Below the pieces are notes generated by a model. That model saw only the letters and a program-made list of their open reading frames with translations, searched no databases and was not told the DNA's origin. The position numbers and the translations under genes are program-made. Below, one piece after another: positions 6,700-62,333 of a DNA stretch of 64,000 nucleotides (its first letter is position 1; every line of letters starts with the position of its first letter). Origin of the DNA: Candidatus Scatovivens sp. (lineage in GTDB: Bacteria; Bacillota; Clostridia; TANB77; CAG-508); NCBI GenBank assembly GCA_045646345.1, contig JAZRKN010000016.1:1693-65692 (forward strand). Direction: 5' to 3'.

Positions 6700-6972
6700 G
6701 TGCTCTTTTCCTCCTTCACAGTTGTCTATACGAAACAGTAGGAATATAACTACTAATAATGTTATACGTTCAACCATTATATCACACTTAACATAAATTT
6801 ACAATACTTTTATTAAGTAATCTTTCAACTTTGTTCGACAATAAATTTTCCTAGATTGTTCAAACAGTATTTTCTCACAATTATTTTAGCATTATTGTCT
6901 TCAAATATCTTTATTTTAAAGCTATTTTATGGTATTATTATAATTAACATTTATAATAAAAGGAATTTAGTT

Positions 6973-9309
6973 ATGAATTTAAAATCTTTAGAAAAATTAG
7001 AATTTAATAAAATCTGTAATATTTTAAAATCTTATACCATCACTTATATAGGTATGGATTTAGCAGAGAATTTAAAACCTTTATCTACAAAAAGAGAAAT
7101 AGAAAAAGCTCAAAAACAAACAACTGAAGCTTCTACTCTTTTATATAGAAAAGGTTCTATTCCTGTATCTGAAATTGAAGATATTACCCCACACATAAAA
7201 AAATTAAACAGTAATTTATTTCTTTCAATAAAACAATTATTAGATTTAAAGAAAATATTAAATACATCTTCAAAACTAAAAGATTACTTCACATCTACAG
7301 AAATAGATATGTCTGAATTTGTAAATCTTGAAGGTTTATTTAGCAATTTATATATAAATCCATCAATTGAAAAAGAACTTGAAAAATCAATTATTGATGA
7401 AAACACATTATCAGATGACGCTTCTAGTGAATTAAAAAATATCAGAAAATCTATACGTTCTAAAGAACAAGAAATTAGAAATAAATTAAATTCATTCTTA
7501 AATTCAAAATATGTTCAAGAAGGAATTATAACAATGCGAAATGGTCGTTTTGTTATTCCAGTAAAAAATGAACATCGCCAAGATGTAAAAGGATTTATTC
7601 ACGACATTTCATCAAGTGGTTCTACTGTATTTATTGAACCTATATCAATTTTTGATTTAAACAATGATTTGAATAATTTAAAAAATGAAGAAATTATTGA
7701 AATAGAGAAAATTCTACAAAAACTATCATCTTTATTTTTTAATATTATTCCTAATATAGAAAATAGTGTCAATTTAATTGGTCTTATTGATTTTATTTTT
7801 GCAAAAGCAAAATATTCAAATAATTTAGATGCAACTGAACCAATTATAAATGATGATAAATATATAAATTTATTAAATGCATGGCATCCTTTATTAAACA
7901 AGAATCAAGCTGTAAAAAATAATATTCCAATCGGAAAAAATTATAATTGTTTAATTATAACTGGACCAAATACTGGTGGTAAGACTGTAACTTTAAAAAC
8001 TGCTGGTTTATTAATGCTTATGGCAATGAGTGGACTTCATATTACTGCAAAAGAAGGAAGTAGTATTTTTATTGCTGATAATATTTTTGCTGATATTGGT
8101 GACGACCAAAGTATTGCTGATTCTTTAAGTACATTCTCTTCTCATATGACAAATATAGCAAATATTTTAAAAGAAGCTACTGAAAATAGTTTTATTTTAA
8201 TTGATGAATTAGGTTCTGGAACAGATCCAGTTGAAGGTTCTAGTTTAGCAATAAGTATTTTAGAAAAACTAAATTCACTAAAAGCCTTAACTTTATCTAC
8301 AACTCATTATCCTGAAATAAAACATTTTGCTTTAGTAACAGATGGGTTTGAAAACGCAAGTGTTGAATTTAATATAGAAACCCTATCTCCTACTTATAAA
8401 TTATTATTAGGAGTTCCTGGTACAAGTAACGCATTTGCTATTAGCAGAAAACTTGGAATATCTGAAGACATTATCAATAGAGCAAAAGAATTTATTGATT
8501 CTGATAAAATTAATATTGAAGATCTATTAACTACTATTTATGAAGATAAACGTACAATTGAACTTGAAAAGCAAAAAACATTAGACAATTCAAAAGATAT
8601 TGAAAAATTAAAACAATCTCTTGAATTTGATGTATCAAAATTAAAACAAGAACAAAAAGAAATCATAAACAAAGCCAAAGACGAAGCACGTAATATATTG
8701 ATTTCTGCAAAAGAAGATGCAAATGATATTATAAAAGAACTTGAAAAATCTTCTAGCAATAAAGAATCAAATAAATTAAGAAATAAATTAAACGAAAAAA
8801 TAGATAAATTAAGTGTTGTAAATAAATCAGAAGCAACTAGTAATTCCATTTCTATTAATGATTTAACCCCTGGTGTTACTGTTTGGGTTAGCAAAATAAA
8901 TCAAGAAGGAACTGTTTTATCTATTTCAAAAGAAAAAAAAGTTCAAGTCTCTCTTGGACTTGGAAAAATGTTCTTTGATATTTCCGATTTAGAACTAATA
9001 AAAAATTCCACAAAAAAAGAAATTTCAAAAGACTATTCATCTAGAAAAGAATTTAAAGCTAAAGCTATCGCTTCTGAAATAAATGTAATTGGACAAAATG
9101 TTGATGAAGCTTGCTTAGTTATTGATAAATATTTAGATAATTGCTATTTAAATGGATTAGCAACAACTAGAATTGTTCATGGAAAAGGTACTGGAGCTTT
9201 AAGAAATGGTATTCACAAATTCTTAAAAACTCACCCACATGTAAAATCATTTAGAGTAGGTACATTTGGCGAAGGTGAAATGGGAGTTACGATTGTTGAA
9301 TTAAAATAA
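6973..9309 (+). CDS. mutS2: endonuclease MutS2 (MutS domain plus C-terminal Smr)
   Basis: Walker A GPNTGGKT and C-terminal Smr motif VHGKGTGALR. Likely true start MNLKSLEKLEF at 6973 rather than the 6856 ORF start. Confidence 0.9.
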   Translation: MNLKSLEKLEFNKICNILKSYTITYIGMDLAENLKPLSTKREIEKAQKQTTEASTLLYRKGSIPVSEIEDITPHIKKLNSNLFLSIKQLLDLKKILNTSSKLKDYFTSTEIDMSEFVNLEGLFSNLYINPSIEKELEKSIIDENTLSDDASSELKNIRKSIRSKEQEIRNKLNSFLNSKYVQEGIITMRNGRFVIPVKNEHRQDVKGFIHDISSSGSTVFIEPISIFDLNNDLNNLKNEEIIEIEKILQKLSSLFFNIIPNIENSVNLIGLIDFIFAKAKYSNNLDATEPIINDDKYINLLNAWHPLLNKNQAVKNNIPIGKNYNCLIITGPNTGGKTVTLKTAGLLMLMAMSGLHITAKEGSSIFIADNIFADIGDDQSIADSLSTFSSHMTNIANILKEATENSFILIDELGSGTDPVEGSSLAISILEKLNSLKALTLSTTHYPEIKHFALVTDGFENASVEFNIETLSPTYKLLLGVPGTSNAFAISRKLGISEDIINRAKEFIDSDKINIEDLLTTIYEDKRTIELEKQKTLDNSKDIEKLKQSLEFDVSKLKQEQKEIINKAKDEARNILISAKEDANDIIKELEKSSSNKESNKLRNKLNEKIDKLSVVNKSEATSNSISINDLTPGVTVWVSKINQEGTVLSISKEKKVQVSLGLGKMFFDISDLELIKNSTKKEISKDYSSRKEFKAKAIASEINVIGQNVDEACLVIDKYLDNCYLNGLATTRIVHGKGTGALRNGIHKFLKTHPHVKSFRVGTFGEGEMGVTIVELK

Positions 9310-48591: not shown

Positions 48592-49335
48592 TTATTTTTC
48601 TACATTTCTAAATCTTTGAAGGAAATCCTTAGTTTCTTCTTTTTGTGGATTTACAAAAATATCTTCTGAAGTTCCTTCTTCAAGTATTATACCATTATGC
48701 ATAAACACAACATGATTTGATATCTCTTTTGCAAAAGCCATTTCATGAGTAACTATAATCATTGTAAACCCTTCTTTTGCTAAAGTTTTTATAACTGATA
48801 GTACTTCTCCAACCATTTGTGGATCTAATGCCGATGTTGGTTCATCAAATAGTAGCACTTCTGGCTGCATTGCTAATGCTCTTGCTATTGCAACTCTTTG
48901 TTTTTGACCTCCGGATAATTGTTTTGGCTTAGCATTTATAAAAGGTGTCATTCCTACTTTTTCTAAGAAAAATAAAGCTTTTTCTTTTGCTTCATTTTTA
49001 CTTATTTTTAACACTTTTTCTAACCCAATCATACAATTTTGAAGAACATTCATATTCTCAAAAAGATTAAAATTTTGAAATACCATACCTACTTTTGTTC
49101 TGTAATTTGGAATATCTTTTGAGTCTAAAATATTTTCTCCATTAAAAAGAATCTCTCCTCCACTTGGAGTTTCCAATAAATTAATACATCTTAAAAGAGT
49201 AGATTTACCTGATCCTGATGCTCCAATTATTGAAGTTATATCACCTTTTTTTACTGAAAAATCTATATCTTTTAAAACTTCGTGGCTGCCAAAATTTTTA
49301 ATTAAATGTTTAATTTCAATAATTTTCTCACTCAT
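48592..49335 (-). CDS. polar amino acid ABC transporter ATP-binding protein (GlnQ/TcyC-like)
   Basis: Walker [10 protein letters not shown], signature [14 protein letters not shown], Walker [12 protein letters not shown]. Confidence 0.95.
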
Positions 49336-49336
49336 T

Positions 49337-50131
49337 TTATTCTACCTCCTTTTTTGAAGGATATTTTAAAAGTCCACTAGTATAAGCTAATGTATCAGTT
49401 GTTGAAAGAGAATAATCTTCTGGACCATTTAATTTATTTTCAACTATTCTTAATAATTTTGAACAAGTTACGGTCATAAATAAATACATTATCATTGTAA
49501 CTGTATATGCTTCAAAATATGTATAATAAGTTCCTGCTACAGACTTTGTAGCAAAAAATAATTCTACTGTTCCAATTACAGAAAGTACACAAGTATCTTT
49601 TATATTAATTATTAAGTTATTTCCTATTTGAGGCATTATATTTCTTGTTGCTTGAGGAAGTATTATATAAAGCATTGTTTGGAAATGATTCATACCAATT
49701 GCTTTTGCACCTTCTGTTTGTCCATCAGATATTGATAGTATTCCTCCCCTTACAGTTTCAGCCATATATGCTCCTGTATTTATTGAAACTATAAAAAATG
49801 CAGCAAACCACATACTCATATTAATTTCAAAAACAACAGCAGAACCATAATATATAAACATTGCTTGAACCATCATTGGAGTTCCTCTAAAAACCTCCAC
49901 ATAAATATCCATTATTGCTTTTAATGTTTTTAAAAATATTTTCTTAAATAAATTATCTCTTTTGGAAACCGGTATTGTTTGTATAATTCCAACAACAAAT
50001 CCAATTAAACAACCTATAATTGTACCAACTAATGCAATTAATAATGTTGTCCCAGCACCTTTTAAAAGAGAAGTTCCATATTTTTGAATAATAAATATAA
50101 TTCTTCCTAAAAAGTCTTGTGGTAAACTCAT
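49337..50131 (-). CDS. polar amino acid ABC transporter permease
   Basis: HisM/GlnP-type permease with EAA-like loop. Confidence 0.9.
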
Positions 50132-50150: not shown

Positions 50151-51014
50151 TTATTCAGATAATGGTTGAACACTAATTGCAGTATTCATCATTTCTTCAA
50201 AATCTGTTGTATCAAGTTCAGCTAATGCTGTATTTAATTCGTTTAATAATTCTGTATTTCCTTTTTTCACTGAAATACCAATATTTATTTCTTCTTCTGA
50301 AACATTAAAATTATCATTTTCAGAATTTGTAAAATCTAATAATTTAAAATCTGGATAAACTTTTGTTGCAGCCATTGCTGTTGGCATATCTGTTACAACT
50401 AAATCTGTTTTTCCTGAATCTAATGCTACTAACATTTGTGACGCAACTTCCATTGCTGGTAAAATATTTGCATTTTTAATTTGAGGTAAGCACACATCAT
50501 ACCAAACTGTATTTATTTGTGAAGTACATGTAGCACCTTCTAAATCACTAACTCCAGTTGCATCTGCATATTCACTATCATTTTTTGTTAATCCTACGAT
50601 TGAAGCATAATAATATGGTGTAGTAAAATCAACTGTTTGTAATCTTTCTGAAGTAATTGATTGACCAGCTATAACACAATCAATTTTGTTTGATTGAAGC
50701 GCTACTGGTAAACTATCCCAATCAATTTGATAAATTTCTAATTCATATCCTAATTTTTCTGCTAAAAATTTTGCTACCATTACATCATATCCATAAGCAT
50801 ATTCTGAACTTCCTGCTATTGGAACAGCTCCGTTTGATGTATCTGATTGTGCCCAGTTATATGGTGCATATGCACACTCCATACCAACTCTTAATACTTT
50901 TGTTTCTTCACCTTCATTTGTGTCTACTGTTTGGTTTTGGCATCCTGTAAGAGTTACTAATCCAATAACCAATAAAATTAAAGTAATACTTAAGTTTCTT
51001 AAAATGTTTCTCAT
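50151..51014 (-). CDS. amino acid ABC transporter substrate-binding lipoprotein
   Basis: lipobox LTGCQ; SBP_bac_3-like. Probable start MRNILRNLS at 51014 with RBS GGAGGG. Confidence 0.85.
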   Translation of the reverse strand: MRNILRNLSITLILLVIGLVTLTGCQNQTVDTNEGEETKVLRVGMECAYAPYNWAQSDTSNGAVPIAGSSEYAYGYDVMVAKFLAEKLGYELEIYQIDWDSLPVALQSNKIDCVIAGQSITSERLQTVDFTTPYYYASIVGLTKNDSEYADATGVSDLEGATCTSQINTVWYDVCLPQIKNANILPAMEVASQMLVALDSGKTDLVVTDMPTAMAATKVYPDFKLLDFTNSENDNFNVSEEEINIGISVKKGNTELLNELNTALAELDTTDFEEMMNTAISVQPLSE

Positions 51015-51400
51015 AATAAAACCCTCCACTAAATTTATTTTTAAATATCTGTTAATGATTAGTGGAATTTTATGTTTGTAAAACAAAAAATTCGTGAATG
51101 ACTACTTACATAGAACATTCACGAACACAATAATTTACATATCAAAATAAAGATATATTAAATATATCATTCGATTCTAGATAGCGCTCCACATAAGTGA
51201 CAGTTCGTTACATATTTTGCAACGTCCCAGCAATATTTATTTAGACGATAAATATAACTTCGGCAACATTTCCTTTCAAGCAAATATAGGAGTCTATTCC
51301 ACTTAATTTACTTTACTCTTAAACATCGCGACCTCTACCAATAGTCATTGGGGTTACCAATAACAGATTATTTAATTGTTTTTAAGTTTAGCATAGATTT
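51015..51400 (-). ncRNA. candidate structured cis-regulatory leader (riboswitch or attenuator) of the amino-acid ABC operon
   Basis: Roughly 330-nt 5' UTR, noticeably GC-enriched for this genome. Promoter TTGACA-17-TAAACT near 51380-51410. Terminates in a hairpin ttcgtgaatg-N15-cattcacgaa (51091-51125) followed by a U-run just before the RBS. Confidence 0.45.
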
Positions 51401-51512
51401 TTTTCTTTGTCAACATAATTTTAATTTTTTATTTTAAAATCCTTCGCTTTACTTTTAGATAAAATCGTGCTATCATATATTCTTGTGTGAATAATCAAAT
51501 TTTGAATAAAGA

Positions 51513-52274
51513 TTGGAGAATGCGAAAATGTCATTATTAGGAATCGTTCGGGATCAACATCTATTACTGCTCTTTGCAGTACAATTTGTAACCTCATTTT
51601 GCTTTATCTACTATGGGAAAAATAAACTCAGCTTTATTTCAGAAATCTTACTAATAATAAGCTGTGTTTTATACCATAAAACACCATTTAACTTGGACAT
51701 ACTACATTGCTATATTGCTGAATATATTTTACTGAAACTTTCTCTTGTTTTGATTGTATATATCGCAAAACGCTTTGCTTTTTTCATTTTGGTAGTAATA
51801 ACCCATAAAGAAAAATACAAAAAAGCGTATAAATTTCTTGTAAAAAAGAAACGTTTTTTGCGATTCCAATCACGCATATGGAATAAAGTAAAATACGGCA
51901 TTAGAATCAAAAAGGGTATTCCATCGATGGTAAACAAAAGAAATGCTCAGCACGGAATTTCTTTTGATAGTGATGGTTTCCCAAAGTTCAAAGTCATCAC
52001 TGAGGTTTACATAGATTCGTGTTATTGGAAAAAAAGCCGAGATGTACATTTTTATCAAGCAAATCGGCAATTATATACTCGAATCAAAAAATACTCTAAA
52101 CTTTCCAAAAAATTTACCAAAAACGAAATCAAAGAATTCAAGCAAGGAAATACTCCTAAAAAATATACTTGGCATCATCACCAAGATAAAGGATTGTTAC
52201 AGCTTGTCGATTCTGAAATTCATGCAAAAGTTCGTCATAATGGTGGATTTTCGATTTGGGGCCCAAGAGAATAA
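51513..52274 (+). CDS. ORF ending in a WHH-type HNH/EndoVII nuclease toxin domain; N-terminal part probably degenerate (orphan toxin module)
   Basis: C-terminus KKYTWHHHQDKGLLQLVDSEIHAKVRHNGGFSIWG matches the WHH nuclease signature (W-HH ... H ... H-GG). N-terminal 130 aa is low-complexity hydrophobic and may not be translated. Alternative start MVNKRNAQHG at 51927. Confidence 0.55.
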   Translation: MENAKMSLLGIVRDQHLLLLFAVQFVTSFCFIYYGKNKLSFISEILLIISCVLYHKTPFNLDILHCYIAEYILLKLSLVLIVYIAKRFAFFILVVITHKEKYKKAYKFLVKKKRFLRFQSRIWNKVKYGIRIKKGIPSMVNKRNAQHGISFDSDGFPKFKVITEVYIDSCYWKKSRDVHFYQANRQLYTRIKKYSKLSKKFTKNEIKEFKQGNTPKKYTWHHHQDKGLLQLVDSEIHAKVRHNGGFSIWGPRE

Positions 52275-52276
52275 CA

Positions 52277-52310
52277 AAAAACCTCCGGTTATACGGAGGT
52301 TTTCTTTTAA
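52277..52310 (+). terminator. intrinsic terminator
   Basis: stem aaaacctccg/cggaggtttt followed by T-run. Confidence 0.75.
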
Positions 52311-52358
52311 ATTAAACAGGGACAGCTTATCTGCTGTCCCTTCGTTTATTTTCGAGAA

Positions 52359-53333
52359 TTATCTCTTAATCATTATTCCGCTTCCACTTGATTTAATAGT
52401 AGTCTCATCAAAATCTTCAATCAACCACATCGCTTTGCTAATTTCAATCTGCTCTTCATTAAGATTGAAACTTCTGCAATATGCCGTTGCGATTTCCTGA
52501 ATCAAGAAATGAAAAACTTCAGGCGCCTGCATATACAGTTCATTGCTTTGAATCATGCAAATTAGATATGCGTTAAGCTGATATGCAATACTGGTTTCAG
52601 CAGGAACTTTTGCCTTAGGATAGATTGCATCTTTCAGTACTTCATTGATATGATCTTCCAGAAGGAAATCTTCATCCATAATGCTTCTGGTCACCAGTTC
52701 AGGGTTTGCAAAAATCATCTGCTGACCAATCATCGCAGCATAGAGATATGCACTATTATTACAAGGATATCCCATCCAGCTTACCAATCTCAGATTTACA
52801 GCTTCTGTAATGGTTTCATAAAGTCCCCAATACATATCAGTATCGTATTCAATACCAAGCATATGAACTACTTCATGACACCAAGTAAAAGGAAAATATT
52901 CAGGCAGATTTTCATAGAGATTTTTGTTTACATAGACAACATTACTTCCAGGCTTATGATAGCCCATCAGCACATTGTCAGAAACACCAATGAGTTTCGT
53001 CTCTACAGAATTGATTTTTTCGGTAACATCAATTCCATATTCGATCTGGAAATATTCAATTACCTTTTCCTTTAATCCTCTAATGTACTCTTTATCAGGA
53101 TTGCAGATTTCGACATTAGACGAATCGATCAAAGAATTAATGTACTCTTTTTCATCCCAAATCATATTTTCTTCAGGAATATCTACAGAGTCACTCTCTT
53201 CCATAAAGAAGAATTCTGCCAGTGTAATTTCCTTATTGGTAGGATCATAGAGATTATCCCTTTTTACTCCACATCCCACCAAAGTGGTCATGAGCATAAC
53301 TACAACCAAAATCATAGCAAAAATTTTTTTCAT
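52359..53333 (-). CDS. lipoprotein with HExxH zinc-metallopeptidase motif
   Basis: lipobox LVGCG; HEVVHMLG; about 40% GC. Confidence 0.55.
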   Translation of the reverse strand: MKKIFAMILVVVMLMTTLVGCGVKRDNLYDPTNKEITLAEFFFMEESDSVDIPEENMIWDEKEYINSLIDSSNVEICNPDKEYIRGLKEKVIEYFQIEYGIDVTEKINSVETKLIGVSDNVLMGYHKPGSNVVYVNKNLYENLPEYFPFTWCHEVVHMLGIEYDTDMYWGLYETITEAVNLRLVSWMGYPCNNSAYLYAAMIGQQMIFANPELVTRSIMDEDFLLEDHINEVLKDAIYPKAKVPAETSIAYQLNAYLICMIQSNELYMQAPEVFHFLIQEIATAYCRSFNLNEEQIEISKAMWLIEDFDETTIKSSGSGIMIKR

Positions 53334-53633: not shown

Positions 53634-56006
53634 TTAATATCTATGTTTAAAATTATATATTTTTTTGTTTTTCTTTTTTCCTAATATAATTACACTAATC
53701 AATACAATTACACATCCAATTATTATAACTGTATTATTACCAGAACCACCAGCTTCCGGCAACTGTATCATCGGTTTATTAGGAACATTTAATATAATTT
53801 CAGGTTCAGAAGATACCATTTCTACTTCATAAATTTCTTCACTTAACTTATAACCATCTGGCGCTTTTATTTCTCTTACTCTATATGTTCCATTATTTAT
53901 ATAACTAACTATAGCCATTCCATCTGAATCTGTAGTATAATCTCCAACAGGAAGAACCGTATCTTCATATATTTGATCTACCGAAAAAACAGCTCCTTCT
54001 AGCGGTTCATTTGTAAAGTAATCATATTTATTGATAATTAAAAGAGTTTGTCTCATGTTAGCAATTGTTGCAATACCATATTCATTGTCATTTACACAGC
54101 TACTCACAAAATATCCATCTGGAATATCAAATTCTGATACTGAATATATTATTTCTTCACCATTTTCATCAAACCTTGGTAAATTCTCAAATTTGTAATA
54201 CCAAACGCCATCATCTGTCACTGTTTCTACATCAAGAGCCATTGTTCCATAAGGATTCGGTGTAATTGCATTATCATCTTTCATTTCTACAACTTCAACT
54301 TCATCATCTTTATTAGATGATAATCTTATATTTATTGACTCTGGTCTTTTAAAATTTTCCGATTCCTCTTCAGAAAGAGCCATTGTTGGAACATCATCTA
54401 CCCATACTTTATAAACTTCATAATCAGTTACTGTTTTTATATATGTGTAGACTACTTCTTGAGTTTCTGGTGTAAATATTCCTGAACAATTTTCTGGTAA
54501 TTCCATTATTTCATAATATAAATATTCACCTACTTCCGCATTATATTCTTCAAATAATTTTCCCTTTAGTTTAACTGGATCTTCTAATTCTTCTCCATAT
54601 TCATCTAAATGTCTTACTATTACATAAGAAACTAAATCTAAATTTGCTGAATTTGTAGTAATTGTATTATCATTTTCTGTTATTACTGCAGTATTTGAAA
54701 TTAAATTTGTCGTTGGATTATCTACAACTTTGGCGTCTATAACAAACTTATAATTCTGTCCTTCATAATTTATCAAATTCAAATAATTTAAATCAAATGT
54801 ATATTCCAAAATATTGTTATTTGTATTTACTGTACCTGCGATATCTGTTATATTATTTTCATTTTCATCATATACAATTAGATTTTTATAAATTAAATTT
54901 GTATTTAATTCATCCAAAAATTTTAGTTTTGATAACCTAAATGTCGTTTCATCTGAAGTTGGCATTTTATATGATATTGTATATTTTATATCTTCTCCAG
55001 CAGTAGCTTCAAATGTTGAAACTTCTTTTATAGCATCACCTTCATAATTCGAAGTTAACGGTAAAAAGTTCATATGGTAACCGTTTGATAAATTAGAATT
55101 TAATGAATGTAAATTTATATTTATATAATCTACATTTTTATACAAAAAAGATATCGCATATTCTTTTTCTAAGAGATTTGATGTGGAATTCATTCCAGCA
55201 TATAAATCATTGTATCTTTTTTCACCATGCGTAATATTTTCTATATAATTTATGTTTGAATTTTTATACAAATATACTTTTGATGAATTACTACTATTTA
55301 TAGCTTCTTTTGCTATTCCATTTTCACCACTTAATCCATATAAAGTGTAATATGCTGTTTCTAATATTATCTTATCAGTTCCATTAACATAAAAATACAC
55401 TTTCATATTAATATTTTCGAATCCTCTTTGATACCATTCATTATTCAAATTTTGATTTTCCACATAACCATAAGACGTCCACCATAATACTTTTGAATTA
55501 TTTAATTTTTTTTGATTTAAGTCATCTCCGGTATATTCACTTCCTGAGAAAAAATCGGAATAAACTATTTTGATATCTATATTGTTTCCATTCAATGTTC
55601 CACAATCTTTAAACAAAGCTTCAATTTCAATATCTACATTTTGATTATACGGTAAATCCATAAATGTAACACTTTTTATTGGTTGTTGCACTTCATCGTT
55701 TTCTATTAATGGTCTTCCTCTATTTACCCCATCTTCTCCATCAATCACATATTGATAATCAGTTTTTATTGTTAGTATTGGTAATTTTGAAAAATTTAAT
55801 TTTAAATTCTCTAATGTTGATTTCTCAAGCAAGGAATTATTATCAATACTTATAGAATTATTGGCTAGTTTTGAATCTAAGTCAATAATTTTATATATAT
55901 CATATTGTGTTTTACTGTAATTTAACAATATACATCCTAATATCGTACTCAAAATAAAACATATCACTATTAAATTAAACTTTAATTTAAATCTATTTTT
56001 TCTCAT
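53634..56006 (-). CDS. cell-wall-anchored surface protein with Cna-B/SpaA-type domain and LPxTG-like sorting signal (LPEAG)
   Basis: 790 aa; N-terminal signal/TM. C-terminal Cna-B pattern (GAVFSV...TTDSDGMAIVSYINNGTYRVREIKAPDGY). Sorting signal LPEAGGSGN followed by hydrophobic segment and KKKNKK tail. Confidence 0.7.
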   Translation of the reverse strand: MRKNRFKLKFNLIVICFILSTILGCILLNYSKTQYDIYKIIDLDSKLANNSISIDNNSLLEKSTLENLKLNFSKLPILTIKTDYQYVIDGEDGVNRGRPLIENDEVQQPIKSVTFMDLPYNQNVDIEIEALFKDCGTLNGNNIDIKIVYSDFFSGSEYTGDDLNQKKLNNSKVLWWTSYGYVENQNLNNEWYQRGFENINMKVYFYVNGTDKIILETAYYTLYGLSGENGIAKEAINSSNSSKVYLYKNSNINYIENITHGEKRYNDLYAGMNSTSNLLEKEYAISFLYKNVDYININLHSLNSNLSNGYHMNFLPLTSNYEGDAIKEVSTFEATAGEDIKYTISYKMPTSDETTFRLSKLKFLDELNTNLIYKNLIVYDENENNITDIAGTVNTNNNILEYTFDLNYLNLINYEGQNYKFVIDAKVVDNPTTNLISNTAVITENDNTITTNSANLDLVSYVIVRHLDEYGEELEDPVKLKGKLFEEYNAEVGEYLYYEIMELPENCSGIFTPETQEVVYTYIKTVTDYEVYKVWVDDVPTMALSEEESENFKRPESINIRLSSNKDDEVEVVEMKDDNAITPNPYGTMALDVETVTDDGVWYYKFENLPRFDENGEEIIYSVSEFDIPDGYFVSSCVNDNEYGIATIANMRQTLLIINKYDYFTNEPLEGAVFSVDQIYEDTVLPVGDYTTDSDGMAIVSYINNGTYRVREIKAPDGYKLSEEIYEVEMVSSEPEIILNVPNKPMIQLPEAGGSGNNTVIIIGCVIVLISVIILGKKKNKKIYNFKHRY

Positions 56007-57118: not shown

Positions 57119-59875
57119 CTATAACTCAATTTCATCAGTATTTTGTGCATTAGTTTTTTTACTTTTTGCAGTTTTTCTTTTTGTATCTCTTACAACTTCA
57201 GATAATTGTCTTGCAGCTTCTCTTGCAGAGTATTTCTTGTCCAAAGCTTTTCGCAAAGAAAATTTTAAAACTGAATTCGAAACAATTGGTTCAAAGCCAT
57301 TTTGGGGCCTTGCAACACCTGATACTTTTCTTATAACTTCTCTTGGATCCATATATGTTTTTTCTACTCCAAGACTTAATATATCTCTTGTTGACTCTTG
57401 TCGAACTCCAGTTGAAACAAATAGAGTATCTGCTTTTAATCCTTCTTCATTTTTTTCAGATACATCGATCTCATAATTAATTTTAATAGCTTGTTTTCTA
57501 GTTATAGCTTCAGCTTTATCATATACAGAAAATTCTGAAATTTTTGTTATCCTATCTCTTTTTTCTTCCAAGTCACCTTTACCTGTAGCTTCAACTTCAT
57601 GTTTTGAAACTCTAGTAGAAGGAATTATCATTTCACTAATAACTTCGCTTTTTTGTGGATCCGGCAATTCTAAACCATTATCTTCAATTAATTGTCTAAA
57701 TTGCTCATTATCAAGTAATTTCTTTATTACTTGAGTTCTCATTGATTGTTCATACACTCTCTCTGATATATTGTTCTTCTTAGCAATTAATTCTTTATCA
57801 TAATCATATATAGTCAATATAGATTCAATTGGCATATTATTTATATAATATTCCTGTAAAAAATATAACTCATGCTCATTTAATCCAAATGTTTCTTCTG
57901 GATTTTCTTGCATTATTTTTTCTATACAACTTCCCACTTCAACTGGATTTTTCGCTATATCTTTTAAAAACTTTTCTTGTCTTTTCGTTCTTCTGTCTTC
58001 TGTTAATAATAAAGCATCATATAATATTGGATCTATTTCTACTATCGCCTCTTTAGGAATTATTCCTTTAAATAAAACCTCTCTTGAAGCAGGTGCATAT
58101 TTTCTCACTCTTTCATGTTTTTTCTCTTTGCCAGATTTATCAATCTTTGAAGATATTAATGATGAGCCTGCATCACGTAAAATTCCTTCTTGATAACTAA
58201 TCTTTCCACCTTGTGAAAAATCAATTATTCCTTCAGGAAGTTTTTCTCTACCAACATATATTAAATTTTCTTCATTTTCAATAATAGATAATCTTTCTGT
58301 GATTTTATTTTTTTGTTCTTCAGATAGTTTAGCTCTTTCTAATAATTGTTTTAAAAATTCTTTTTCTCCAGTCAAAGCCATTTTTTCATCATTTATAATA
58401 CCCAAACGTTGTCCCATTAATTCATAAACTTTATCTATGTTTATCAAAAATACCGATGCTCTTTGATTTTTATAAGCATTCCCAGAAGGAAATTCACTTA
58501 AATATGTTGCTGATATAGCAAATATCTTACTTGTTGAAATAAATGAAGTTTGCATTCCTGGTTTTGAGCCTTGTTCTATATGTGTTTGAGGTGAAATTCT
58601 AGAATCCAAATCCGCAGCTATAATTTCATTTCCATATTTAGAATCTTGCGCTCTGAATAACATTTCTGGGAAATCATACTTTTGTTTTATACTTTCACTC
58701 CATTCTAGTTTTCTTTGTTCTATATATTCATTTTCAGTTACACTTACATATTCACTTATCAAATCTCCCAAAACATCTTTTTTTACCAAAGATGGCATTT
58801 CATCCAATATACCTGCGATATAATTAGTTCCGTTATTCATTTTTTTAAAAAAGGGTTCATTTGGAAATCTAACATGTGTTATATACTTTTCTATGTCATT
58901 TTCGCTTTTTCCTTCTTTTCTTAATTGTACAATATCTTCAAAAATAGTTTTTAAAACAATTTCTGCACACCTTTCCCATTCTCGAGTAATTTTTTGTTTT
59001 GGATATTTTTTTCGATTTTGTTCTTTTAATTTATTTACATACACCTTATAGTTAATAGATTTTGAAATAAACTCTTCTGCTGAAACACCTTCATTTTCTT
59101 TTTCTTCTAACAGTTTTAAGAAAATTTTCAAATTATAATATCCAGCATCTACATCTCTTTTTTTTGAAGTTCCATATCTAGACATTCTTACTTGATCAGT
59201 CAATTTACTTACTTCTTCTTCTATTAACTTTTCTAACTCTTCTTCTTTTATCTTACTATGTTGTTCTACTTGTAAAGACAAACAATCTCTCTCATATTCT
59301 CTTGTATAAAACGCTGCTATAAGTTCTGAATACGAACTCATCATTTCAGGATTTTCAGTTAATATTTCAGTCAATTCCTTAGGTGATATTCCTAATGAAT
59401 TTTTTAAATATTCAGATTCTCTTTCCATAATTGGCTTTACACTTTTTCTCTCTTCTACAGAATATTGATCGTGCAAAATCAACATATCTTTCATTCTTGC
59501 ATCTTTACGAAATAAGTTCAAAATTGTATCAAAATCTTCTATTGTGACATCAGCTTTATTTATTAACTCATTAATTAACTTTTTTAAATCTTGATCTCTT
59601 ACAGGTTCTTTTCCTTCAAAAATTTCGCAAAAATCATCGATTACTAAATCCATTTCAGTTTCAAATACTAATCGATCATTCTTTTTTCCTCCCAAAAGTA
59701 TTGCATCTTCTACAAAAACAAAATCTTCCTTATAATCATAATCTCCAATTATTCTCTCATAAGATTTTAATTTTTCTTTGTATTCTGGTTTTCTTTCTAA
59801 TAAAACTCTTATTAATTTATTTTTTATTGCTATTTGATCTGAATAACTCAAATTATCAAATAATTCCCTTACCAT
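57119..59875 (-). CDS. large hypothetical cytoplasmic protein (918 aa)
   Basis: no TM. Central region has FR...(38 aa)...FISTS...(about 57 aa)...GEKEF, which loosely matches the R-S-E spacing of ADP-ribosyltransferases (speculative). Confidence 0.45.
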   Translation of the reverse strand: MVRELFDNLSYSDQIAIKNKLIRVLLERKPEYKEKLKSYERIIGDYDYKEDFVFVEDAILLGGKKNDRLVFETEMDLVIDDFCEIFEGKEPVRDQDLKKLINELINKADVTIEDFDTILNLFRKDARMKDMLILHDQYSVEERKSVKPIMERESEYLKNSLGISPKELTEILTENPEMMSSYSELIAAFYTREYERDCLSLQVEQHSKIKEEELEKLIEEEVSKLTDQVRMSRYGTSKKRDVDAGYYNLKIFLKLLEEKENEGVSAEEFISKSINYKVYVNKLKEQNRKKYPKQKITREWERCAEIVLKTIFEDIVQLRKEGKSENDIEKYITHVRFPNEPFFKKMNNGTNYIAGILDEMPSLVKKDVLGDLISEYVSVTENEYIEQRKLEWSESIKQKYDFPEMLFRAQDSKYGNEIIAADLDSRISPQTHIEQGSKPGMQTSFISTSKIFAISATYLSEFPSGNAYKNQRASVFLINIDKVYELMGQRLGIINDEKMALTGEKEFLKQLLERAKLSEEQKNKITERLSIIENEENLIYVGREKLPEGIIDFSQGGKISYQEGILRDAGSSLISSKIDKSGKEKKHERVRKYAPASREVLFKGIIPKEAIVEIDPILYDALLLTEDRRTKRQEKFLKDIAKNPVEVGSCIEKIMQENPEETFGLNEHELYFLQEYYINNMPIESILTIYDYDKELIAKKNNISERVYEQSMRTQVIKKLLDNEQFRQLIEDNGLELPDPQKSEVISEMIIPSTRVSKHEVEATGKGDLEEKRDRITKISEFSVYDKAEAITRKQAIKINYEIDVSEKNEEGLKADTLFVSTGVRQESTRDILSLGVEKTYMDPREVIRKVSGVARPQNGFEPIVSNSVLKFSLRKALDKKYSAREAARQLSEVVRDTKRKTAKSKKTNAQNTDEIEL

Positions 59876-60356: not shown

Positions 60357-60445
60357 GCAGATGTGGCGGAACTGGCAGACGCACAGGACTTAAAATCCTG
60401 CGGGACCTAAATCCCGTGCCGGTTCGATTCCGGCCATCTGCACCA
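60357..60445 (+). tRNA. tRNA-Leu (anticodon UAA) with encoded CCA
   Basis: acceptor stem gcagatg/catctgc, anticodon loop cTTAAaa, long variable arm, T-arm ccggTTCGATTccgg, terminal ACCA. Confidence 0.9.
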
Positions 60446-60873: not shown

Positions 60874-61131
60874 ATGAATAATAATGTAATTAATCAAACA
60901 AAAGATAAAAAATATACAAAAGCAGAATTGATAACAATTGATTCTATTAGAAGAGTAAAAAATCCATTTAGAATGATTACTGTTAAAGATGTTATGAAAG
61001 ACTTAAATATATGTGAGACTGTCGCATATAAAACATTTAAAAGACCAGATTTTCCATCCATAAATGTAGGCAAAAATAATCAAGTAATGTTATTGGCTTA
61101 TTTATTATGGAAAATGGAAAAAAGAGATTAG
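60874..61131 (+). CDS. xis: excisionase/AlpA-like small HTH DNA-binding protein
   Basis: 85 aa, basic, immediately upstream of and overlapping the integrase gene; HTH-like segment NICETVAYKTFKRPDFP. Confidence 0.55.
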   Translation: MNNNVINQTKDKKYTKAELITIDSIRRVKNPFRMITVKDVMKDLNICETVAYKTFKRPDFPSINVGKNNQVMLLAYLLWKMEKRD

Positions 61132-61142
61132 GAGGTGTTTAT

Positions 61143-62333
61143 ATGGCTGCTATACATACACAAGAAGGTACAGTTTATTATGAAAAAACAAGAAATCGTT
61201 GGAGATGTGATTATAAAATTTTAGATCCCGATACATCTAAATTTATAAGAAAAACAAAAACATTTCGTTCTGAACAAGATGCAAGAGATTTTTTTTCAAT
61301 GCTTCAATATCAAAAAGGTAATGATTTATATGTGAAAAATAATGGTATACCTTTAAATAAATTAATACGAAGTATTTTAGAAAGAAAATTAGAAACTGGA
61401 GTTATTGGTGAAAGAACATATGCTAGAACAATGGAAACAATTACAGCAATGGAAAAATGCGAGATACTTAAGAAAAATATTGATGATATATCTAGTGTGG
61501 AGCTACAAAGTTATTTAAATTCTTTAAGACATTATAGTCAAAATACTATAAAGAAATTTATGGATCAATTAAATCATGCATTTAAATATGCTCAAAATAA
61601 AGGGTATATAATAAAAAATCCTATGTTTGATATTATAAAACCTAAAAGTAATAAACAACCAAGAGAAGTTCGTGCATTAGAGATTGAAGAACAACAAAAA
61701 TTAACTGATTATTTACTATATGTTCCTATTAGTGAAGAACCATTTAAGAATGTATTTTTATTACAAATGTTTTTAGGACTTCGTATAGGAGAGGCATTAG
61801 CGTTGCAAGTAAGTGATATAAATTTATACAAGAATATAATTTGTATATCAAAAACTTTAACAACAGATAAAAATCGAAAAGTAATTATGGGAGATAAAAC
61901 AAAAACTTATGCTGGAAAAAGAGAAATACCTATACCAGATTTTTTATTAAATGAAATAAAAAATCAAATGAGATTAGCAGAAAATAATAAAGATAAATTA
62001 TTATTTGTTGATAAAGCTAATAATTATGTATTACCAAATAACGCAAATAGGAATTTACAAAAGATCGCTCAAAATTTGGGAATTGAAAATATATCAAGTC
62101 ATAGTTTAAGACATACTTATGGAACAAGATGTATTGAAGCTGGAATGAGAGCAGTTGCCCTTCAAAGACTTATGGGACATACTGATATAGCTGTTACATT
62201 AAACACTTATACTTCAATATTTAATAAATATAAAGAGCAAGAATTAGAAAAAGTAAATGAATATTATCTAAATAATGAAATTTTAATGAAAAGAAATTTG
62301 CTACAGGATGATACTGAAAATATTCGAAATTAA
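61143..62333 (+). CDS. int: tyrosine-type site-specific recombinase/integrase
   Basis: catalytic signature LRIGEALAL...HSLRHTYGTRCIEAG...LMGHTDIAVTLNTYTS (R...HxxR...Y). RBS aggagg before the ATG at 61143. Confidence 0.9.
   Translation: MAAIHTQEGTVYYEKTRNRWRCDYKILDPDTSKFIRKTKTFRSEQDARDFFSMLQYQKGNDLYVKNNGIPLNKLIRSILERKLETGVIGERTYARTMETITAMEKCEILKKNIDDISSVELQSYLNSLRHYSQNTIKKFMDQLNHAFKYAQNKGYIIKNPMFDIIKPKSNKQPREVRALEIEEQQKLTDYLLYVPISEEPFKNVFLLQMFLGLRIGEALALQVSDINLYKNIICISKTLTTDKNRKVIMGDKTKTYAGKREIPIPDFLLNEIKNQMRLAENNKDKLLFVDKANNYVLPNNANRNLQKIAQNLGIENISSHSLRHTYGTRCIEAGMRAVALQRLMGHTDIAVTLNTYTSIFNKYKEQELEKVNEYYLNNEILMKRNLLQDDTENIRN

Follow-up and report, generated by a model that had tools for sequence, protein, structure and literature searches.

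An intact, conserved gene joining a predicted three-pass membrane module to a toxin-type WHH DNase domain in Candidatus Scatovivens

According to earlier work, nucleases of the WHH type are essentially restricted to polymorphic toxin systems, in which they are always neutralized by an immunity protein (PMC3482391), and a survey of His-Me finger nucleases found WHH/Colicin-DNase domains in toxin-antitoxin-like contexts with pretoxin domains (PMC5714182). Here, we describe a gene for such a domain in a 64-kb stretch of the genome of Candidatus Scatovivens sp. (contig JAZRKN010000016.1), called the window below, in which all coordinates are given. The gene is intact, monocistronic, conserved in its whole architecture, and under purifying selection, and its parts are, in order, a three-transmembrane (TM) module, a basic linker, and a WHH/Colicin-DNase nuclease. 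The interpretation that we favor, with moderate confidence, is that of an intact and conserved three-pass membrane protein in which a domesticated toxin-type WHH DNase would be made safe by tethering or auto-inhibition.

The nuclease domain has its nearest relatives in toxin tips (C-terminal toxin domains) from Streptococcus, Granulicatella, Enterococcus, Bacillus, and other genera, with 40 to 49% identity over residues from about 105 or 135 to 245. These tips end proteins of 250 to 1,100 amino acids (aa), one of which (locus L070) has a WXG100 domain, and in 27 of the 32 loci a SUKH-1/SMI1_KNR4 gene of about 145 aa lies directly downstream. The WHH/Colicin-DNase tips of the type VII secretion system (T7SS; WXG100/LXG type) (Zhang, Iyer & Aravind 2011; Zhang et al. 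2012) share with the window protein the motifs FDxxGFPxF and TWHHHQ...H...HxGG; unlike in those tips, the domain of this family comes after a three-TM module dedicated to it, in a protein of 248 aa, with neither an immunity gene nor tip polymorphism. The closest solved structures by sequence are C termini of Rhs toxins (8bd1, E = 1.7e-7; 8h8a, E = 9e-7). These Rhs-family type VI secretion system (T6SS) effector nucleases (8bd1, "Rhs"; 8h8a/8h8b/8h8c, "Putative Rhs-family protein" C-terminal peptide) have the WHHHQ and FDSDGFP motifs as well but, unlike this family, are Gram negative, delivered by the T6SS within an Rhs cage, paired with immunity proteins, and devoid of such a TM anchor. More remote is the similarity to the DNase domains of colicins E7 and E9 and of pyocins, which share the His-Me finger (HNH) fold and provide the best Foldseek matches in the Protein Data Bank (PDB) (ColE7/pyocin DNases 2jaz_B and 7cei_B; probability 0.91 to 0.96, weak E values of about 0.2 to 0.4, 18 to 23% identity). 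Colicins, unlike this family, also contain receptor and translocation domains, and a gene downstream encodes the immunity protein that binds them tightly.

Domains of this kind also occur in the membrane-associated SitA lipoproteins of myxobacteria, polymorphic PF12639 toxins passed on by TraAB outer-membrane exchange and countered by SitI immunity proteins (PMC8546572). As predicted for the window protein, SitA combines membrane association with a Colicin-DNase/WHH domain, and Archangium and Cystobacter are among our nuclease-domain matches; unlike the product of this Gram-positive Clostridium locus, SitA is lipid anchored in the outer membrane, transferred, polymorphic, and SitI paired. Outside the toxins, EndA of Streptococcus pneumoniae and NucA of Bacillus subtilis have a single N-terminal signal anchor and a catalytic domain outside the cell, and NucA has an inhibitor, Nin. 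The family resembles these two in being a small, apparently membrane-attached nuclease encoded by an ordinary chromosomal gene and differs from them in the nuclease family, in the three TM helices, and in the predicted cytoplasmic position of the domain.

A layout similar to the one predicted here has been described for SNIPE (Saxton et al., Nature 2026), a membrane-bound antiphage nuclease that cleaves phage DNA during injection (PMC13190303). SNIPE, the constitutively expressed product of a single gene, is anchored by a TM segment with the N terminus outside, continues with a basic region that binds DNA and a nonspecific GIY-YIG nuclease predicted to face the cytoplasm, and has no immunity protein; its membrane-bound form is auto-inhibited, and deletion of the TM segment is lethal (PMC13190303). 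For the family, the prediction is likewise a short N terminus outside, then a membrane anchor, a basic region that probably binds DNA, and a nuclease at the C terminus, and here too a single gene comes without an immunity protein. Unlike SNIPE (DUF4041, GIY-YIG, usually one TM helix), however, it has an HNH/WHH nuclease and three TM helices, and since it lacks DUF4041 and carries an HNH nuclease instead of GIY-YIG, the comparison is one of "works like" and not of membership.

An intact gene conserved at full length

A preliminary description of this DNA, made from the sequence alone, had delimited the feature as 51513-52310 and taken it for an orphan toxin tip displaced by C-terminal domain swapping. 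The open reading frame (ORF) found on the plus strand spans 51513-52274, with a TTG at 51513 as its first codon, but the start is the conserved ATG at 51528 (all homologues open with MSLL/MT..) and the stop codon ends at 52274, which corrects the bounds to 51528-52274 (Table 1). The gene has signals of its own, and we compared them over 15 family loci, the same set in which neighboring genes were compared (all against all, ORFs within 6 kb; with further loci inspected, about 17 in total). The ribosome-binding-site (RBS) region, GATTGGAG, is conserved 5' of close homologues, the promoter arrangement cTTTACa-N17-TGnTATnAT recurs 5' of homologues in at least 13 other loci, and in most of them a comparable hairpin lies directly 3' of the stop codon.

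From 5.8 billion proteins, 92 clusters of homologues were retrieved, nearly all of 235 to 269 aa, with about 100% query coverage, 36 to 99% identity, and both PF14414 and PF12639. Uncultured Clostridia of the gut and rumen are the source of the full-length members (RGIG metagenome-assembled genomes [MAGs], uncultured Lachnospiraceae, and Clostridium sp. CAG:793), one of which bears in NCBI just the name "HNH endonuclease." Against an 85%-identical orthologue (locus L087), the ratio of nonsynonymous to synonymous substitution rates (dN/dS) was 0.12 for the whole gene, 0.27 for residues 1 to 105, and 0.077 for the nuclease (0.052, for comparison, in the adjacent ABC permease of the same pair). 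Both halves of the gene are thus under purifying selection.

A profile of the N-terminal 105 residues (the N module), run with HMMER against 1.84 billion representative proteins, gave 28 matches. All of those long enough to judge end in the WHH domain (240 to 268 aa), the remainder being contig-end fragments or frameshifted copies, and in no case was the module joined to another C-terminal domain. Since the profile finds only WHH proteins or fragments of them, the architecture is fixed and there is no polymorphism of the tip. In a tree, the nuclease domains of 17 of the 18 family members included fall into one clade that contains no toxin tip, a pattern consistent with a single fusion; the monophyly of all 18 has a bootstrap of only 45%, since one member (L014) wanders. 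The nuclease protein matched nothing in NCBIfam or PADLOC, and among PHROGs there was only a marginal match (E = 0.009) to a family of unknown function; considering this outcome, no curated model is specific to the family, and it is not among the listed defense proteins. A phage or prophage origin was rejected because viral contigs and SPbeta-like phages match the nuclease domain alone, never the full-length protein, and so was a recent horizontal acquisition, since the GC content (0.29 to 0.32) is similar to that of the neighboring DNA.

The assignment of the C terminus to a WHH-type HNH/EndoVII nuclease, of the kind found at the C termini of polymorphic toxins, had already been proposed and is borne out by both Pfam models that cover its last approximately 100 aa, Colicin-DNase (PF12639; E = 3.2e-28, 98.8 bits, gathering cutoff 25) and WHH (PF14414; E = 1.1e-16, 60.7 bits, gathering cutoff 25.1). 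At the sequence level, these matches are far beyond chance. In such domains, the WHH tripeptide and two downstream histidines are involved in metal binding and water activation (PMC3113570). W215, H216 to H218, H232, and H237 are invariant in an alignment of 28 family members with identities down to 35%, and the AlphaFold model has the beta-beta-alpha-metal core (strands 213-217 and 223-228, then helix 229-234). Because the catalytic residues are invariant, inactivity is unlikely, and judging from them the protein is probably an active DNase.

These data bear directly on the orphan tip, that is, a recombination leftover with a meaningless hydrophobic N terminus and decayed DNA upstream. The WHH domain is indeed of the toxin type, and real short cassettes exist, such as the 139-aa protein of an Enterococcus locus (L027) that is followed by a SUKH gene. 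Yet the gene is complete and conserved over its full length, its N-terminal part is constrained (the dN/dS of 0.27), its N module occurs exclusively with WHH domains, and its ATG, promoter, RBS, and terminator are all conserved. Considering also the confident AlphaFold helices, the lack of an immunity gene, and the upstream DNA, which holds a lysine riboswitch of the opposite strand, we regard a displaced cassette as extremely improbable.

Membrane module and predicted topology

The N-terminal approximately 92 aa are hydrophobic, as had been noted, and the hydrophobic character is conserved in the 28-member alignment; what had been read as low-complexity filler is a conserved three-helix membrane module. 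Within it, S23, K70, and F85 do not vary and E39 hardly does, which points to conserved intramembrane charges, and in the linker Y123, K128, and G130 are invariant. The net charge over the linker plus residues 81 to 92 is about +13. AlphaFold2, run with the family alignment, gave a model with a predicted local distance difference test (pLDDT) value of 91 and a predicted template modeling (pTM) score of 0.78, in which residues 56 to 92 form one continuous long helix. Residues 83 to 92 are hydrophobic in the window protein, but distant members carry E, K, and N there, for which reason, together with the continuous helix, a fourth TM segment at this position was rejected. No Pfam family matched residues 1 to 145 at E <= 1, so there is no recognized secretion or trafficking domain, and the membrane module itself had no match in Pfam, NCBIfam, or PADLOC.

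The positive-inside rule is an established principle of membrane-protein topology. Three TM helices would leave the two termini on different sides of the membrane, and the family-average net charges (loop 1, +2.8 and never below +1; loop 2, -0.5; stretch after TM3, +13), read by this rule, place the N terminus outside and the C terminus, with the nuclease, in the cytoplasm. On the basis of this modeling, three TM helices with the C terminus inside are the likely arrangement.

A different solution is seen in Rummeliibacillus stabekisii (locus L043, 5764-6393), where a 209-aa protein carries a WHH nuclease behind a Sec signal peptide and a Lys/Pro-rich linker, and no SUKH gene follows. From its sequence, it seems to be a WHH nuclease that is secreted and lacks an immunity gene, a second noncanonical use of the toxin domain.

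If the WHH domain of our family were instead outside, the protein would be a cell surface ecto-nuclease similar to EndA or NucA, involved in the scavenging of extracellular DNA, in its turnover in biofilms, or in the processing of transforming DNA, and immunity would be needless since the domain would fold only after export. The promoter of constitutive type and the absence of an immunity gene from every locus examined would suit this role, and the Rummeliibacillus protein, with its cleavable signal peptide and basic linker, suggests that exported WHH nucleases without immunity do occur. However, the odd number of TM helices, the invariably positive loop 1 (+2.8), and the +13 right after TM3, both predicted to lie on the same side, argue for a C terminus inside; there is no signal peptide, and the conserved intramembrane E39, E65, and K70 would be superfluous for a mere anchor. 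We therefore consider an ecto-nuclease unlikely.

Genomic neighborhoods and the search for a partner

The statement that no SUKH or other immunity gene adjoins the nuclease gene holds. No gene follows on the same strand; beyond a terminator comes, as also stated before, a convergent gene for a HExxH lipoprotein (52359-53333, minus strand; lipobox LVGC, HEVVH). Neither neighboring gene has an Imm or SUKH match in Pfam at E <= 1, and a SUKH hidden Markov model (HMM) built from 27 proteins of related loci had no match in the window's ORFs or in the 15 family loci. Nothing except the nuclease gene is common to all these loci. The ABC transporter next to it is shared only by the window, L007, L010, and L087, and the other neighbors include a cation ATPase, AddA, GlyRS, an HD protein, TetR and MerR regulators, a glycogen-branching enzyme, ThiD, and a VTT/DedA protein. 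Neither T7SS nor pretoxin components were seen nearby, the surroundings holding a sortase-type adhesin, a tRNA-Leu, and an integrase. In a polymorphic toxin system (sensu Zhang et al. 2012), the tip is preceded by a secretion or trafficking domain, such as LXG, WXG100, RHS, FilH, a PT domain, or a signal peptide; the immunity gene, which for WHH tips is of the SUKH, Imm28, or Imm37 type, comes right after it; and one N-terminal region is joined to various toxin domains. None of these features was found here.

These comparisons bear on whether the protein could still be a genuine interbacterial toxin, delivered by vesicles, membrane exchange, or lysis, with its immunity gene elsewhere in the genome. 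Its closest relatives are toxin tips, and the SitA lipoproteins of myxobacteria are membrane-anchored PF12639 toxins exchanged from cell to cell (PMC8546572). Against this, one N module goes with one C-terminal domain, with no polymorphism; selection on the nuclease is purifying and not diversifying; no immunity gene is adjacent in about 17 loci, versus a SUKH gene downstream in 27 of 32 related toxin loci; and neither secretion system genes nor pretoxin domains were seen. An interbacterial toxin is very unlikely on these grounds.

Several candidate partners were considered and rejected. The lipoprotein gene is convergent, lies past a terminator, and is conserved beside no homologue. An ORF of 152 aa in another frame (52042-52500, plus strand), a possible hidden immunity gene, is of low complexity and shares DNA with the convergent gene and with the nuclease gene's 3' end. 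Counting the window, only 4 of the 15 loci have an ORF like it, and we do not regard it as a gene but as a by-product of the coding frame, which is conserved and rich in lysine. In the locus of an uncultured Lachnospiraceae MAG (L008), a 101-aa ORF with a good RBS (6771-7076, plus strand) starts 18 nucleotides (nt) past the nuclease stop codon. It has no Pfam match and no counterpart in the other loci, and so was rejected as a partner of the family, although it could be a lineage-specific one. Directly 3' of two distant members (43 to 44% identity), there is an ABC_tran plus FtsX/MacB-type transporter (L088, 9120-12204; L090, 6938-10174), followed in L090 by a response regulator and a histidine kinase, an arrangement that resembles a Bce-like module. 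The pair is absent from the other loci, and its presence was taken as a coincidence.

Upstream of the gene, approximately 420 bp had been described as lacking a good ORF and as degenerate. There is indeed no credible ORF in 51087-51512, but the DNA is not degenerate, since it holds a lysine riboswitch on the minus strand and two divergent promoters; the gap is therefore the leader of the transporter operon plus the nuclease promoter and not decayed toxin DNA. The ABC transporter is probably a lysine-repressed uptake system. The flank with the riboswitch is conserved in L010 and L087.

Table 1. Features of the nuclease gene and its upstream flank (window coordinates)
Feature	Coordinates	Strand	Basis
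Complete monocistronic gene, 248 aa plus stop	51528..52274	+	ORF, full-length homologues, alignment, AlphaFold, dN/dS
Sigma-A-type promoter TTTACT-17-TATCAT, TG extended -10	51448..51476	+	Promoter reading
RBS GGAGA, 8 nt 5' of ATG 51528	51515..51519	+	Sequence
N-terminal membrane module, aa 1-92; predicted helices 12-28, 32-50, 56-92	51528..51803	+	Alignment, AlphaFold
Strongly basic linker, aa 93-135; predicted short helices 98-104, 108-119	51804..51932	+	Alignment, AlphaFold, charges
WHH-type HNH/EndoVII (His-Me finger) DNase domain, aa 136-248	51933..52271	+	Pfam, PDB, Foldseek matches
Catalytic and metal-binding motif W215-H216-H217-H218	52170..52181	+	Sequence, invariant columns
Intrinsic terminator, starting 4 nt past the stop codon	52278..52303	+	Hairpin
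Second hairpin, serving the convergent gene	52318-52341		
Promoter TTGACA-17-TAAACT of the divergent operon	51413-51385	-	
Lysine riboswitch aptamer, full-length model	51174..51345	-	Rfam RF00168, 107.3 bits, E = 1.3e-27
Terminator-like hairpin and T-run, just 5' of the solute-binding protein gene start (51086)	51125-51090	-	Read from sequence
Three-gene amino acid ABC transporter operon: solute-binding protein, permease, ATPase	50151-51086, 49337-50131, 48592-49335	-	Pfam SBP_bac_3

On the other side, the lipoprotein (324 aa) has no Pfam or NCBIfam match above threshold, with weak hints of DUF3810 and of a PHROG metalloprotease. Beyond it, a 790-aa surface protein (53634-56006, minus strand) carries SpaA, Cna_B, MucBP, and AgI/II-C2 domains and, at its C terminus, an LPEAG-type sorting signal followed by a TM helix, and looks like a sortase-anchored adhesin or a pilin-like protein. 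A 918-aa ORF (57119-59875, minus strand) has no Pfam match at E <= 1e-4. A tRNA-Leu(TAA) gene (60357-60445, plus strand) precedes by about 660 bp a tyrosine recombinase (61107-62333, plus strand; Phage_integrase, E = 4.6e-25), and an integrated mobile element probably begins at this tRNA.

Restraint and possible role of the nuclease

The preliminary description had left two possibilities for a toxic module without immunity, inactivity or an immunity gene elsewhere. Inactivity is unlikely given the invariant catalytic residues, and a third option, an active nuclease that is tethered or auto-inhibited, fits the data better. In the scenario that we propose, the nuclease domain would come from the same stock as the toxin tips of T7SS/LXG, Rhs, and contact-dependent inhibition (CDI) systems and would have been fixed onto one dedicated membrane module, the SUKH-type immunity partner having been lost or never present. 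The gene would be transcribed alone, from a promoter of housekeeping type, and its product would hold a WHH DNase on the cytoplasmic face of the membrane, behind a very basic linker and with the N terminus outside. The membrane module and the linker would then keep the DNase off the nucleoid through tethering, auto-inhibition, or both, and we give about an even chance to this being the safety mechanism. Cutting would be limited to DNA reaching the membrane, most plausibly, by analogy with SNIPE, DNA that enters from phages or through conjugation or transformation; alternatively, the cell's own DNA would be cut after a membrane signal. Action on incoming DNA, drawn from that analogy, is possible but rather doubtful.

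The alternative just mentioned would make the protein an effector of suicide or abortive infection type, a membrane-held DNase that would be freed by damage, depolarization, phage lysis proteins, or another membrane signal and would destroy the cell's own chromosome together with replicating phage DNA. The evidence from architecture and topology is the same as for a nuclease held at the membrane against incoming DNA, and the charged residues in the membrane helices suggest sensing or partner binding beyond anchoring; likewise, the pTM of 0.78 implies, in the model, a defined packing of the nuclease on the linker and TM helices. However, PADLOC had no match, the context is not that of a defense island, no trigger or sensor partner was identified, and the present data fit action on incoming DNA equally. 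We rate a suicide effector as improbable, to the same degree as the ecto-nuclease.

Several points weigh against a domesticated DNase that is restrained at the membrane and serves in defense. The topology comes solely from the positive-inside rule and AlphaFold, and export, as in Rummeliibacillus, is another way to dispense with immunity. A constitutively made, nonspecific DNase facing the cytoplasm is risky, and the mechanism of restraint is not evident in the data. The loci are ordinary chromosomal neighborhoods and not defense islands, PADLOC has no match, and the position of the gene, unchanged between the window, L010, and L087, looks more like that of a stable housekeeping gene than of a typical defense gene. 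Finally, searches of phage and viral collections found no full-length member and hence no hint of exclusion carried by prophages.

A literature search found no paper on a membrane-anchored WHH family without immunity. A bolder proposal is that of an undescribed single-gene system of gut Clostridia in which a WHH DNase, domesticated onto a three-helix membrane module and confined or auto-inhibited there, would need no immunity protein and would destroy entering DNA, an independent second instance of the SNIPE principle, by which self and nonself are told apart by location; it is more speculative still than action on incoming DNA as such. Two practical lessons follow from this locus, namely, that a Pfam match to a toxin domain is no proof of a "toxin cassette," as the rest of the protein needs checking, and that a flank free of ORFs may hold a riboswitch of the opposite strand. 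For the biology of these bacteria, the family breaks the toxin-immunity pattern of WHH nucleases, with an intact and selected catalytic site, one membrane module, and no partner in about 17 loci. If the cytoplasm-facing topology is true, it would represent a natural lethal DNase made safe by architecture and a candidate for a second membrane-localized nuclease immunity like SNIPE, in the understudied uncultured Clostridia of the gut and rumen.

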